A stretch of 64,000 nucleotides of DNA from Escherichia phage vB-Eco-KMB42. Where the stretch lies: the sequence record OR539221.1, one strand, 5' to 3'. Below, piece by piece: positions 8,632 to 14,395 of the stretch. A program made the translations under genes and the position numbers. Each line of letters opens with the position of its first letter. Position 1 is the first letter of the stretch. The notes below the pieces were generated by a model that was given only the letters and a program-made list of their open reading frames with translations, did no database searches and was not told the origin of the DNA.

Positions 8632-9636
8632 TTAGCTCACCAACTCAATCCAAGCCGGACGAAGTACATCTTGTACCATTTTAACTAATTCCTTTTTAAC
8701 CAAAGAAGGATTATCCGCTTGAGTTAGAGTAATACCTTCACGAGAAGTTTCTTCCAAAATATCTTGAACAGTTAGTCCCATCACCTTTCCAAAATCTTTT
8801 GGACCAATTTCGCCAATTTTAGAAATAACGTTATTTACTCGGTTCAGTGTAACGTAACAAGCTAAAATCCCCACCAATTTGTTATCAGCTTCTGACAATT
8901 CAACTTTAGCTTTAATAGGCTTATCAGACTTTTTCTTTTCACTAAATTTAGAATTCTTACATTTGATGGCTACACGATTTCCATTATGAAGCCAAGAAGG
9001 ATAACAAGGTTTCAATACATATCCTTCAGCAGTAAATACTTCGCCTTTTGCTTCGGCATTCCAAACGCATTTATTTGCATCAACTAATCCAGCATGGTCT
9101 ACTGTAAAATTATAATCTTGGACGACAGAATCTAAATCATTTGGCAATTTAATAAGCTCTTCAAATTTACCGCGACCTAAAAGTGGAGCCATTTTAAATT
9201 TAAATGTATTACAGAATGATTCCATCATATAATCATCGACATAAGTCACATCACCACTTTCTGTAGTGACAATAATGTCAAATACATAAAAATCTTTATC
9301 ACCATAATCAACATTCTTCTGAATGCCAGGTCCAGCGAATTCGCCAAAGACTTGATAAGATACAACCGCTGAAGTTTCCATAATATCTTGTACTGCTTTA
9401 ATGGAATCAGCGTAATTCTTTAGAATAATTTCATACCCAAAGAAATCTTCAGCAGGAAGAATCGGTCCAGTACGTTTAGCGCAAGTTACTTTATCACGCC
9501 CAATAATCAATGAGAAATTTGTGCCGTGAATCTTTTCACGAGCTACCCATTCGCCGCCAGTCAATCCTAAGCTATAAAGTTTTTCAATAAATTTAGAGTT
9601 GTAATGATTTTCAAGACTGCTATACTTTTTAAACAT
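8632..9636 (-). CDS. rnlB: RNA ligase 2 (Rnl2)
   Basis: 334 aa as T4 Rnl2; N-terminal nucleotidyltransferase motif KIHGTN; position downstream of gene 24. Confidence 0.85.
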
Positions 9637-9645
9637 AATTAATCC

Positions 9646-9924
9646 TCAAAATGTAATTTCTAACCAATCACCATCACGCTGATCACTATTGACTTTAAAG
9701 CTGAATCCTTCTTTTCTCAGCCAATCACCAATTTCTTCAGTAATCAATTTATCACGAGCAGTACAATAATAACTAAAATATGTTTTACCTTGTTCAGCTG
9801 CTTTATTAGCAAGTTCCGAAAAATCTTTAATAAAACACTCTAGTTTAAACTGTTTGCTTTTAAGTGCTTTTTCGCGTAATTGATTAGCAAAAGATTCATT
9901 TTCATAAAGATCATACTGTTCCAT
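9646..9924 (-). CDS. Hypothetical protein (T4 24.2-like position)
   Basis: 92-aa ORF tightly packed between rnlB and next ORF. Confidence 0.6.
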   Translation of the reverse strand: MEQYDLYENESFANQLREKALKSKQFKLECFIKDFSELANKAAEQGKTYFSYYCTARDKLITEEIGDWLRKEGFSFKVNSDQRDGDWLEITF

Positions 9925-10126
9925 TTTTCACCTTTTTATTAATATGTCTTTTTCTATAGACAACTTTTTCTCGAGTCTCAAATTTATTCTTAGCAGTCAT
10001 AGCTCGAGCCCATAATACAGCCACTTCTTTTGCCTGTAAGTTCAATTCACGAGCAATTTCAATGAATGACTTTCCAGACTCATGAAGAGTAAACACCACA
10101 ACCTCAGTTCTCATAATCAATCTCAT
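9911..10126 (-). CDS. Small hypothetical protein with putative helix-turn-helix (T4 24.3-like position)
   Basis: 71-aa ORF; segment SGKSFIEIARELNLQAKEV resembles HTH of sigma region 4/LuxR type. Confidence 0.5.
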   Translation of the reverse strand: MRLIMRTEVVVFTLHESGKSFIEIARELNLQAKEVAVLWARAMTAKNKFETREKVVYRKRHINKKVKNGTV

Positions 10127-10195
10127 GTTATCGAGTTGGTGCCATTATATACATCGTTTTCTGACTATGTTTCGTGTGCTTTCAAAATGAAGAAA

Positions 10196-10209
10196 GGGGC
10201 CGAAGCCCC
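10196..10209 (-). terminator. Stem-loop downstream of hoc (GGGGC-UUCG-GCCCC on minus strand)
   Basis: Perfect 5-bp GC stem with UUCG tetraloop followed by U-rich tract on minus strand. Confidence 0.45.
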
Positions 10210-10215
10210 TTACGA

Positions 10216-11634
10216 TTATGGATAGGTATAGATGATACCAGTTTCTAAAGCAGTTTTATGAATGATGTATCCATTGCGCGATTCTTGGACATCAACTTCT
10301 GGATAGTCTTTCATCATCTTCTGAAGCGTATAACGATGCAAGTAGTACTTACTATCTGGGTCGTCAGTTTTCCAATCTTTACCTTCTTCAGTCATTTTTT
10401 GGATTTCATCCATAACCCACCAACCGCACCAGATATAAGCTGAAGTACGGTGCGGAAGAGGATGAACATAAGGCAATTCACCTTCTGGTTCTGGAGCAAC
10501 TTTATCAGTCACTTGAACTTGACCTGTTGTTTTAACTGTTTTGCTATCATAATCAGTTGCTGTAACGACAGCAGTAACTTCAATAGTTTGACTTCCAACA
10601 GATGAGGTATCGACAGTATATACGTTAGTTGACCCTTCTACAGGAGAAGAATCTTTCTTCCACGAGTAAGTAATTTGTGCTTCTTCTGGAGCATCCGTAA
10701 CATTAGCCGTAAATGTAGCTGAAGCATCTTGCTGAACGTTAATAGAAGGAGGAGTCAATGTAACCTGTGGATTCATTGTCTTCTTATTAACTGTCAATGA
10801 CACTTCATTAGAAGTAACTTCCTTTTCATTGTAATTTTCTGCTGTTACTTGGGCTACGCATTTAATTCTTTTTACTCCACTTGTAGTTGGAGTATAGCTA
10901 AATGTAGAGTTAGTTTCTCCACCAACTTGTGAATCATCTACATACCACTGATACGTAGCAGATGCTCCATCAGGTTGAGAAGCTAAGGCAGCAGTAAATT
11001 GAACTGGGGTTCCAATTACTCCAGCTGAAGGACTATCGGGAGTTACTGCCAAAGTAGTTGTCTGTGTCTTTTTATTAACAGTCAGTGACACTTCATTAGA
11101 AGTAACTTCTTTTGCATCATAATCTGTCGCGGTTACTTGAGCTACACACTTAATTGTTTTAACTCCACTTGTGTCAGGAGTGTAATTGAATGTAGCGCTA
11201 GTCGCTTCGCTCACAGGAGAACTGTCAACGTACCATTGATACGTAGCAGATGCGCCTGATGGCTGCGAAGCCAAAGCAGCGGTAAATTTAACAGCTGTTC
11301 CAATCACTCCAGCCGCAGGACTAGCAGGAGTTACGGCTAAGGTAGTCGTCTGTGTCTTATTTTTAACTGTGATAGTTGTTGTCGCTTCAGCCGTTTCCGG
11401 GCCTCCTTCAGAAAGTGTATTTGTTGCAACTACTTTAATAGTCTTTTGACCAGCAGGACCTTTTAATACATAATCAAAAGTTGCTTCAGACCCATCTTGT
11501 GGAGCATTATCTACACTCCAAGCATAAGTAATAGTTCCACCTCCAGTTTCACCACTGGGTGCAGCAGTAAACTGCTTGGTTTCATCAATAACTCCTGACG
11601 GTGTTTTAGGAGTTATATCAACTGTAAAAGCCAT
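10216..11634 (-). CDS. hoc: Highly immunogenic outer capsid protein Hoc, 472 aa with four Ig-like domains
   Basis: Position between rnlB-cluster and inh; tandem Ig-like repeats plus conserved C-terminal capsid-binding region. Confidence 0.85.
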   Translation of the reverse strand: MAFTVDITPKTPSGVIDETKQFTAAPSGETGGGTITYAWSVDNAPQDGSEATFDYVLKGPAGQKTIKVVATNTLSEGGPETAEATTTITVKNKTQTTTLAVTPASPAAGVIGTAVKFTAALASQPSGASATYQWYVDSSPVSEATSATFNYTPDTSGVKTIKCVAQVTATDYDAKEVTSNEVSLTVNKKTQTTTLAVTPDSPSAGVIGTPVQFTAALASQPDGASATYQWYVDDSQVGGETNSTFSYTPTTSGVKRIKCVAQVTAENYNEKEVTSNEVSLTVNKKTMNPQVTLTPPSINVQQDASATFTANVTDAPEEAQITYSWKKDSSPVEGSTNVYTVDTSSVGSQTIEVTAVVTATDYDSKTVKTTGQVQVTDKVAPEPEGELPYVHPLPHRTSAYIWCGWWVMDEIQKMTEEGKDWKTDDPDSKYYLHRYTLQKMMKDYPEVDVQESRNGYIIHKTALETGIIYTYP

Positions 11635-11643
11635 AAGTTATCC

Positions 11644-12324
11644 TTATTTTAATGTTACGAAAGAAGAATTGCGTGTTTCACGAATTAAAACTGATCCGTC
11701 GCGATTAATGTAATAAATTAAGCTAAACAGAGTTTGGTGTGCTGACGCGTGTTCAAAACTAGTTGGATGAGATTTCCAATCAGGAGTTTCAGCGATCCAT
11801 TGATAAATCCACCAAGGAACCGTACAGAATCCTGGATTTTTCCCCAATAATTGAAGATTCGGGCTAAAGTTTTCCGGAAGAGTAAATACAGACGGCTTTT
11901 CAGATTCAATAATCTCAGCTACAGCTTGTTCAAACTTTTCTTCAACAAAAGGAGTGTCTTCAATCAAACCATCAGTATTTTCAGGAATTTTATCCGTTTC
12001 TACCACTTCAATTTTAACATCAGATTTAACTGGAGAATCAATCAGAAGTGCTGCTTCTGGATTAACTTCTTCATCGTCATATTTTAATCCCTCTGCAGCA
12101 TCAGCAGCATCAATTAAGTCTTTAATAGATAACCCATCAGTCTCTGGCATAGGTTCACTAGCGAGCTTCTGGAGGGCTTCTTCAATATCAACAACGATAT
12201 TATCAAAAGATTTATTCTTTTTGACCTTTATACCAAACTGTTCAGCGTATTCAGCTAATTTAGCTTTAGCTTCTTTATTATCATCAAGAGCCTTCAGCTC
12301 TGCAATATAATCTTTATCTATCAT
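11644..12324 (-). CDS. inh: Inhibitor of prohead protease Inh
   Basis: 226 aa acidic protein immediately upstream of hoc as in T4. Confidence 0.7.
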   Translation of the reverse strand: MIDKDYIAELKALDDNKEAKAKLAEYAEQFGIKVKKNKSFDNIVVDIEEALQKLASEPMPETDGLSIKDLIDAADAAEGLKYDDEEVNPEAALLIDSPVKSDVKIEVVETDKIPENTDGLIEDTPFVEEKFEQAVAEIIESEKPSVFTLPENFSPNLQLLGKNPGFCTVPWWIYQWIAETPDWKSHPTSFEHASAHQTLFSLIYYINRDGSVLIRETRNSSFVTLK

Positions 12325-12337
12325 AATATTTCCTCAG

Positions 12338-12345
12338 TATAAATA
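12338..12345 (+). promoter_or_regulatory. Late promoter (TATAAATA) for uvsW
   Basis: Exact TATAAATA 30 nt upstream of uvsW ATG. Confidence 0.5.
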
Positions 12346-12374
12346 TAGATATATTTATTACATGGTATTTAGAC

Positions 12375-13886
12375 ATGACTGACATTAAAGTACATTTTTA
12401 TGATTTTAGTCACGTGAGAATTGATTGTGAAGAAAGTACATTTCATGAACTCCGTGATTTCTTTAGCTTTGAAGCTGATGGGTATCGTTTTAATCCGAAA
12501 TACAAATATGGCAACTGGGATGGACGAATCCGTCTTTTAGATTATAATCGTCTTCTTCCATTCGGCTTAGTCGGGCAAATTAAAAAGTTCTGTGATAACT
12601 TTGGCTATAAAGCCTGGATTGACCCACAAATTAACGAAAAAGAAGAATTATCAAGAAAAGATTTTGATGAATGGCTTTCTAAATTAGAAATCTATTCAGG
12701 AAATAAAAGAATTGAACCACACTGGTATCAAAAAGATGCAGTGTTCGAAGGATTAGTTAATCGTCGTAGAATTCTTAATCTTCCAACTTCGGCTGGTAAA
12801 TCTTTAATTCAAGCTTTGCTTGCGCGATATTATTTGGAAAATTATGAAGGTAAAATTCTTATCATTGTTCCAACAACTGCTCTGACAACTCAGATGGCTG
12901 ATGACTTTGTTGATTATCGTTTATTCAGTCACGCAATGATAAAGAAAATTGGTGGCGGAGCATCAAAAGATGATAAATATAAAAATGATGCACCAGTCGT
13001 TGTTGGTACATGGCAAACTGTAGTAAAACAACCAAAAGAATGGTTCTCACAGTTTGGAATGATGATGAATGATGAATGCCATCTTGCTACAGGAAAAAGT
13101 ATTTCATCTATCATATCAGGTTTAAATAACTGCATGTTCAAATTTGGTCTATCTGGTTCATTACGTGATGGCAAAGCCAATATCATGCAGTATGTTGGAA
13201 TGTTTGGTGAAATATTTAAGCCAGTAACGACTTCTAAATTAATGGAAGATGGGCAAGTAACTGAGCTAAAAATTAATAGTATTTTTCTTCGCTATCCCGA
13301 TGAGTTCACTACTAAATTAAAGGGAAAAACTTATCAAGAAGAAATAAAAATTATTACGGGGCTTAGTAAAAGAAATAAATGGATCGCTAAATTAGCTATT
13401 AAGCTTGCGCAAAAAGATGAAAACGCTTTTGTCATGTTTAAACATGTATCGCACGGTAAAGCTATTTTCGATTTAATTAAAAATGAATACGATAAAGTTT
13501 ATTACGTATCAGGGGAAGTTGATACCGAAACACGCAATATAATGAAAACCTTAGCTGAAAATGGTAAAGGAATAATTATAGTAGCTAGTTATGGTGTATT
13601 TTCTACTGGTATTTCAGTTAAAAATCTGCATCACGTTGTTTTAGCGCACGGTGTTAAATCAAAAATCATTGTATTACAAACAATCGGTCGTGTATTACGT
13701 AAGCATGGTTCTAAGACAATAGCAACAGTCTGGGACCTCATAGATGATTGTGGTGTTAAGCCAAAATCTGCTAATACGAAAAAGAAATATGTTCATTTGA
13801 ACTATCTTTTAAAACACGGCATTGATCGTATTCAGCGCTACGCAGATGAAAAATTCAATTACGTAATGAAAACAGTTAATTTATAA
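12375..13886 (+). CDS. uvsW: UvsW DNA helicase
   Basis: 503 aa; Walker A (PTSAGKS) and DECH box motifs; T4 gene order. Confidence 0.9.
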   Translation: MTDIKVHFYDFSHVRIDCEESTFHELRDFFSFEADGYRFNPKYKYGNWDGRIRLLDYNRLLPFGLVGQIKKFCDNFGYKAWIDPQINEKEELSRKDFDEWLSKLEIYSGNKRIEPHWYQKDAVFEGLVNRRRILNLPTSAGKSLIQALLARYYLENYEGKILIIVPTTALTTQMADDFVDYRLFSHAMIKKIGGGASKDDKYKNDAPVVVGTWQTVVKQPKEWFSQFGMMMNDECHLATGKSISSIISGLNNCMFKFGLSGSLRDGKANIMQYVGMFGEIFKPVTTSKLMEDGQVTELKINSIFLRYPDEFTTKLKGKTYQEEIKIITGLSKRNKWIAKLAIKLAQKDENAFVMFKHVSHGKAIFDLIKNEYDKVYYVSGEVDTETRNIMKTLAENGKGIIIVASYGVFSTGISVKNLHHVVLAHGVKSKIIVLQTIGRVLRKHGSKTIATVWDLIDDCGVKPKSANTKKKYVHLNYLLKHGIDRIQRYADEKFNYVMKTVNL

Positions 13887-13899
13887 GGGCTTCGGCCCT

Positions 13900-14145
13900 T
13901 TGGAGAAAAAGATGTTACTAGAATTTAAACAATTTCTTTATGAAGCTTCTATTGATGAATTTATGGGTAAAATTGCCTCTTGTCAAACATTAGAAGGTTT
14001 AGAAGAACTTGAAGCTTATTATAAGAAAAGAGTCAAAGAAACTGAATTAAAAGATACTGATGACATCTCTGTGAGAGATGCTTTGGCAGGAAAAAGAGCT
14101 GAATTAGAAGATTCAGACGATGATGAAGTAGAAGAAAGTTTTTAA
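13900..14145 (+). CDS. uvsW.1: UvsW.1 small acidic protein
   Basis: 81-aa ORF directly after uvsW, preceded by GGGC-UUCG-GCCC hairpin and GGAG RBS. Confidence 0.7.
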   Translation: MEKKMLLEFKQFLYEASIDEFMGKIASCQTLEGLEELEAYYKKRVKETELKDTDDISVRDALAGKRAELEDSDDDEVEESF

Positions 14146-14367: not shown

Positions 14368-14395
14368 GATTGTCTCCTCTGAATTATATATCTAT

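Follow-up and report, generated by a model that had tools for sequence, protein, structure and literature searches.

Tandem Ig-like domain-2 units in the hoc gene of Escherichia phage vB-Eco-KMB42 and their age

Introduction

Antigen display makes wide use of Hoc, a protein that has also been implicated in mucus and bacterial adherence. The hoc gene in a 64,000-nucleotide stretch of DNA from Escherichia phage vB-Eco-KMB42 (sequence record OR539221.1; the whole stretch is called the window here) contains two similar segments in a row. This raises the question of whether a whole Ig-like domain has been duplicated in this phage, how long ago, and what the additional domain would mean for the protein. 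An earlier note on this DNA had read the arrangement as a recent tandem duplication of near-identical units.

In T4, Hoc is attached through its C-terminal domain to the centre of gp23 hexamers, and its Ig-like domains are arranged in a roughly straight fibre of ~180 Å (PMC10385173). This capsid-binding domain has been resolved on gp23 hexamers (Fokine 2023, PMC10385173). Domains 2 and 3 of Hoc bind E. coli surfaces (PMC10385173), and the protein is tied to mucin-glycan adherence (PMC9271167). The literature states in general terms that T4 Hoc has three Ig domains (PMC9271167) and that their number is variable (PMC10385173). Among Hoc homologues the capsid-binding domain is conserved and the Ig-like domains attached to it number from 1 to 10; proteins with one, two and ten have been given as examples (PMC10385173).

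Results

Many Tequatrovirus genomes match the first 25 kb of the window at 98-99% identity. The gene order rnlB-24.2-24.3-hoc-inh of the T4 late-gene block is shared by the window and T4, and hoc lies between 24.3 and inh in both. The ORFs of this block are T4-like in order, strand and, except for 24.3, length:

8632-9636: rnlB
9646-9924: 24.2
9911-10126: 24.3
10216-11634: hoc
11644-12324: inh

The hoc gene and its parts are as follows:

10216..11634, minus strand: hoc coding sequence, an ORF of 1419 nt (472 aa plus stop) for the highly immunogenic outer capsid (head decoration) protein
11359..11634, minus strand: Ig-like domain 1 (aa 1-92), aligned with T4 Hoc 1-92; beta-sandwich in the AlphaFold2 model, pLDDT about 75-91
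11071..11358, minus strand: unit 1, Ig-like domain 2a, type A (aa 93-188), delimited by repeat searches; pLDDT 80-95; Pfam Ig_2 and BiPBP_C at aa 121-177
10783..11070, minus strand: unit 2, Ig-like domain 2b, type B (aa 189-284), delimited by repeat searches; Pfam PKD at aa 195-267
10495..10782, minus strand: Ig-like domain 3 (aa 285-380), aligned with T4 Hoc 189-284; Pfam Ig_3 and I-set at aa 289-356
10216..10494, minus strand: C-terminal capsid-binding domain (aa 381-472) and stop, nearly identical to T4 Hoc 285-376
10194..10211, minus strand: candidate terminator, a G+C-rich hairpin with T-run just past the hoc stop, found as a pattern match in a consensus scan (AAGGGGCTTCGGCCCCTT then TCTTCATTTT)

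The ORF has the length of 472 aa given in the earlier note. Its product is identical to the already public WPJ71885.1 of Escherichia phage vB-Eco-KMB42. In a phmmer search against solved structures it matches T4 Hoc (NP_049793.1; PDB 5vf3 chain Z, 376 aa) with E = 4e-223. Residues 1-113 of T4 Hoc align with residues 1-113 of the query, and residues 105-376 with residues 201-472. The two proteins differ in length by exactly one 96-aa unit, and the remainder is collinear. Both have nearly the same domain 1, domain 3 and capsid-binding domain. T4 Hoc possesses one domain-2 unit, mostly of type B with mosaic ends, and has three Ig-like domains compared with four in the window. Four Ig-like domains plus a capsid-binding domain, against three plus one in T4, had been anticipated in the earlier note, and the phmmer alignment, AlphaFold2 and Foldseek agree with this count. 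The repeat is an in-frame tandem duplication of one whole Ig-like domain, domain 2, inside hoc. An equal architecture and length in T4, which the note had named as the finding that would overturn its reading, is ruled out, T4 Hoc being 376 aa long and T4 hoc 1131 nt.

The AlphaFold2 model, built with 31 homologues, has four confident beta-sandwich domains over residues 1-376 (pLDDT about 75-96), with values of about 87-93 across most of domain 3. The C-terminal domain is predicted with low confidence (pLDDT <50 in places). Because the model is poor there, this domain is assigned by its sequence identity to T4 Hoc. Query residues 377-472 differ from T4 residues 281-376 by just one or two substitutions, most columns of the segment are invariant among the 31 homologues, and its mean Ka among ten phages is 0.008. 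Domain 1 is 36% identical to each domain-2 unit. Among the Pfam matches, PKD, Ig_2 and BiPBP_C are above the cut-offs, and Ig_3 and I-set are below. The top PDB matches of the model in Foldseek are four-Ig-domain fragments, for example of Dscam1 and ICAM-5 D1-D4. Neither T4 Hoc nor RB49 Hoc is among the top 50 PDB matches, which are generic multi-Ig proteins instead. For the predicted structure, the Foldseek result supports the fold count and not the family membership.

The repeat was found at the expected place by two methods. Tandem Repeats Finder reports it at 10777-11367 with a period of 288, 2.1 copies, 79% matches and a score of 728. In a repeat search of the window, 10777-11064 and 11065-11352 are 77% identical without gaps. 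The coordinates given in the earlier note, 10786-11073 and 11074-11364, describe this repeat with an offset of 3 nt. When the units are set to follow the interdomain linkers, units 1 and 2 agree at 223 of 288 nt (77.4%) and at 77 of 96 aa (80%). The remaining in-frame offsets across hoc give 30.4 +/- 2.9% identity with a maximum of 43% (z = 16 for the repeat), and the top identity in codon-shuffled hoc (n=200) is 39.6%. Since the identity of the units lies far above both controls, the repeat is real and chance similarity is rejected as its source.

The description of the units as near-identical was overstated, for they differ at 65 nt and 19 aa. Third codon positions hold 41 of the 65 nucleotide differences. 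Predicted strands make up 55% of the positions and yet hold only 4 of the 19 amino acid differences. The third-position bias and the few strand differences indicate that change is concentrated in loops and that both units have been kept as folded domains.

The two-unit arrangement is widespread. A 120-nt probe across the junction of units 1 and 2, a target that cannot occur in a single-unit hoc, is covered over at least 80% of its length in at least 144 phage records. In 60 evenly spaced records of the 678 that match hoc, the gene spans ~1419 nt in about 17 and ~1131 nt in about 33. The top 120 homologue clusters include 77 with Hoc of 376 aa, 29 with 472 aa and 7 with 568 aa. Overall, relatives carry 1, 2, 3 or 4 units, corresponding to 376, 472, 568 and 664 aa.

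The closest named counterparts are RB30 (AY101183, AAM52483.1) and RB27, whose Hoc proteins, like that of the window, have 472 aa and two 96-aa domain-2 units at equal positions. The two 288-nt units have the same position and register in the window and in the RB30 allele (residues 93-284 in both), and RB30 Hoc shares a 90%-identity cluster with the window protein. Over the whole gene, hoc of RB30 and RB27 is 93% identical to that of the window at the nucleotide level, with allelic substitutions only (unit 1 94%, unit 2 92%). The 2002 entry AY101183 for RB30 hoc annotates a repeat_region at record positions 367-944, which spans both 96-aa units, and describes this intragenic repeat as having produced an additional Ig-like domain. 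The same record calls the C-terminal segment a fifth Ig-like domain. Later structural work has identified this segment of Hoc as a distinct capsid-binding domain (PMC10385173). The duplication is therefore already known: it is annotated in GenBank for RB30, the exact protein is public, and the arrangement is common in sequenced phages. In full-text literature searches we found no published discussion of the RB30-type hoc repeat, and the text parts of the supplements of Fokine 2023 (PMC10385173) mention neither RB30 nor RB27 nor 472-aa proteins.

Longer arrays are built from the same unit. UGKSEcP1/P2 (568-570 aa, three units) and slur03 (664 aa, four units) show the window's unit, register and flanking domains with one or two more units, and the units within each gene are 74-84% identical at the nucleotide level. 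With this inter-unit identity, these arrays are also old or were assembled from diverged units. The gene of Escherichia phage slur03 (LN881728.1, locus 901-2895), 1995 nt long with four domain-2 units and six Ig-like domains, is the longest Tequatrovirus allele that we found. RB49 Hoc and the Hoc of Serratia phage Muldoon, which has 10 Ig-like domains, are Hoc-like decoration proteins with sequences distant from that of the window. The phmmer search against solved structures gave no match between the window protein and RB49 Hoc at an E-value cut-off of 1e-3.

To date the units, hoc was compared in ten phages: the window, RB30, RB27, wV7, OZ035759.1 (labelled Mosigvirus mar005p1), UGKSEcP1, T4, KIT03, RB7 and JB75. 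Units 1 and 2 of the window differ by a Ka of 0.118 and a Ks of 1.11, the latter near saturation over 96 codons. The Ka/Ks of 0.11 indicates that both units are under purifying selection. Mean Ks values in the set and nucleotide identities of the window units to their counterparts are:

Type A versus type B, all phages: mean Ks 1.07
Type A orthologues: mean Ks 0.38
Type B orthologues: mean Ks 0.27
Domain 1 orthologues: mean Ks 0.24
Domain 3 and C-terminal domain orthologues: mean Ks 0.26
Window unit 1 and unit 1 of RB30 and RB27: 94% nt
Window unit 1 and the single unit of JB75: 89% nt
Window unit 2 and the single unit of RB7: 96% nt
Window unit 2 and the single unit of T4: 91% nt
Window unit 2 and unit 2 of RB30: 92% nt

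Each window unit is nearer to its positional counterpart elsewhere (94% for unit 1; 92-96% for unit 2) than to its neighbour (77%). By these comparisons, the paralogous units are several-fold older than the divergence of the compared phages, a ratio that is rough with 96 codons and a Ks near saturation. The apparent ages could also be biased by inter-unit gene conversion or by diversifying selection acting on domain 2.

The single domain-2 unit of KIT03 carries a trace of recombination. Its nt 1-122 are those of window unit 1 and its nt 106-227 those of window unit 2, with zero mismatches, and these stretches hold 23 and 30 sites, respectively, that separate the two window units. The KIT03 gene is otherwise a close allele, with 6 differences in 276 nt of domain 1 and 17 in 567 nt of domain 3 and the C-terminal domain. 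On this pattern, the KIT03 unit is read as the footprint of an unequal crossover within a 17-nt stretch common to both units. Over nt 1-48 the T4 unit has exactly the type A sequence and over nt 73-216 exactly that of type B (window unit 2), and over nt 217-264 it is closest to RB30 unit 1. With its type A-like 5' end and type B core it resembles a crossover product. At its 3' end, window unit 2 agrees with the third unit of the three-unit allele. The domain-2 array would thus be a mosaic shaped by recombination between units, with patterns that fit either direction of copy-number change.

Discussion

We conclude with high confidence that the window gene is an ordinary hoc of a T4-like (Tequatrovirus) phage in a common long allele, in which domain 2 is present as two tandem 96-aa units. 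These units are old type A and type B paralogues whose differences lie mostly at synonymous sites and in predicted loops, and purifying selection maintains the two of them. As judged from the allele sequences, unequal homologous recombination or gene conversion is the most likely process by which the domain-2 copy number varies between 1 and 4 across Tequatrovirus. It would act at the conserved ends and core of the units, and T4-type recombination-dependent replication and mixed infections would provide the setting. The earlier note had described the repeat as a ready substrate for expansion and contraction. This fits the natural variants with 1-4 units and the clean crossover product in KIT03.

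A different history of the array may be considered, in which misaligned recombination during a co-infection fused two single-unit alleles that had already diverged, one of type A as in JB75 and one of type B as in T4 and RB7. Single-unit genes of pure type A (JB75) and near-pure type B (RB7, T4) do exist, and the Ks of ~1.07 between the types, far above that of the rest of hoc, is expected for long-lived alternative alleles. The mosaic nature of hoc units, such as the T4 unit that is A-like at its start, B in the middle and A-like again near its 3' end, would also agree with exchange between alleles. However, a pure single-unit A or B gene is equally expected from contraction of an A-B array by crossover in the conserved ends (KTQTTTLAVTP, EVSLTVNKK), and KIT03 indicates that contraction does occur. 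Moreover, a join out of register needs recombination at domain linkers that are short and only weakly similar. We regard such a joining of alleles as possible but rather doubtful. It bears on the history of the gene only and not on its present nature.

A recent tandem duplication in the lineage of the window phage itself is highly improbable. The units are indeed adjacent, in frame and equal in length (288 nt) with no indels, as such an event would leave them. However, their Ks of about 1.1 is three to five times that of orthologous hoc segments in different phage species (0.2-0.4), and on this ground the duplication is not recent. Both units are closer to their positional orthologues than to each other, and the arrangement recurs in the many records that cover the junction probe, the classical isolates RB30 and RB27 among them. 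Low Ks and copies closer to each other than to orthologues, the marks of a recent segmental duplication, were not found, and the word recent in the earlier note has to be withdrawn.

A repeat wrongly expanded in assembly has next to no probability: Shigella phage KNP5 (NC_055713.1) does have a run of 990 N at locus 1151-2140, exactly over the hoc domain-2 repeat region, but the window copies differ at 65 of 288 nt (23%) and so are no duplicated read pile-up, the reading frame is intact, and many independent records from 2002 (AY101183) to recent genomes agree.

A wider view of the array can also be formulated. The domain-2 array of Tequatrovirus hoc would be naturally tunable, with frequent unequal recombination among old, diverged units (1-4 copies of types A, B and C) by which phage populations adjust fibre length and glycan-binding repertoire to the niche, and the three-Ig Hoc of the laboratory reference T4 would be the contraction product of a longer ancestral array. 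We consider this view speculative and on present evidence unlikely.

As for the protein, the window Hoc would be a fibre on the capsid surface, anchored by its C-terminal domain at the centre of the gp23 hexamer with the four Ig-like domains projecting outward. From the near-identity of its binding domain to that of T4, one copy would be expected per gp23 hexamer centre on the mature capsid. Since the Ig-like domains of T4 Hoc form a roughly linear fibre, the four-Ig fibre should be longer by about one Ig domain, roughly 40-45 Å beyond the ~180 Å of T4. The extra domain may alter binding to bacterial or mucosal glycans, and plausibly avidity or specificity would differ with two copies of domain 2 whose loops have diverged.

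The finding carries little weight as a discovery, given the GenBank annotation, the public protein and the variation in Ig number described in the literature (PMC10385173). For users of Hoc it is nevertheless useful to know that natural T4 relatives have 3, 4, 5 and 6 Ig-like domains made from one repeated unit. These alleles offer a natural series in which adherence, clustering and immunogenicity can be related to fibre length and domain-2 dosage. It is also known that the repeat makes hoc difficult to assemble from short reads and to annotate. As the 990-N gap of KNP5 indicates, the repeat evidently breaks short-read assemblies; Hoc is annotated in that record only as a 588-nt fragment.

Additional observations

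No T4 late promoter motif (TATAAATA) was found on the minus strand from hoc to position 14393, and a scan for sigma-70-type promoters gave no more sites than in shuffles.

The 24.3 homologue has 71 aa in the window. The gene is 171 nt long in T4 (56 aa) and 204 nt in both wV7 and RB7, and either a variable choice of start codon or a variable N-terminus may account for the difference. The gap between inh and uvsW is only 50 nt in the window (12325-12374), where segE is absent as in wV7 and JB75. In T4 and RB7 this gene for a GIY-YIG homing endonuclease sits between inh and uvsW. In the region 12375-14145 of the window, uvsW is an ORF of 503 aa that ends at 13886. It is followed by a hairpin, GGGCTTCGGCCC, and then by a separate ORF at 13900-14145 (81 aa, TTG start, with an in-frame ATG at 13912), which is consistent with uvsW.1. 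In the T4 RefSeq record, one uvsW gene of 1764 nt (587 aa) occupies this locus.

Some database records show irregularities at hoc. In those of UFV09/10/11, UPWr_E2, SfPhi01, vb_GEC_SH_GT, ACG-C40 and ZCEC14, the gene is split in two CDSs or has an odd span, which could come from misreading of the repeat during sequencing or from frameshifts, hoc being non-essential. A T4-type hoc with 87.8% identity is present in a record under the name Pseudomonas phage vB_PSGBLB0006, which suggests that this record is mislabelled or contaminated. The record OZ035759.1 has a two-unit hoc of Tequatrovirus type, 93.4% identical and with full coverage of the junction probe, while only 57% of the probe is covered in LR027387.1 (vB_Eco_mar005P1). 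These two records of the same name are apparently different phages at hoc.
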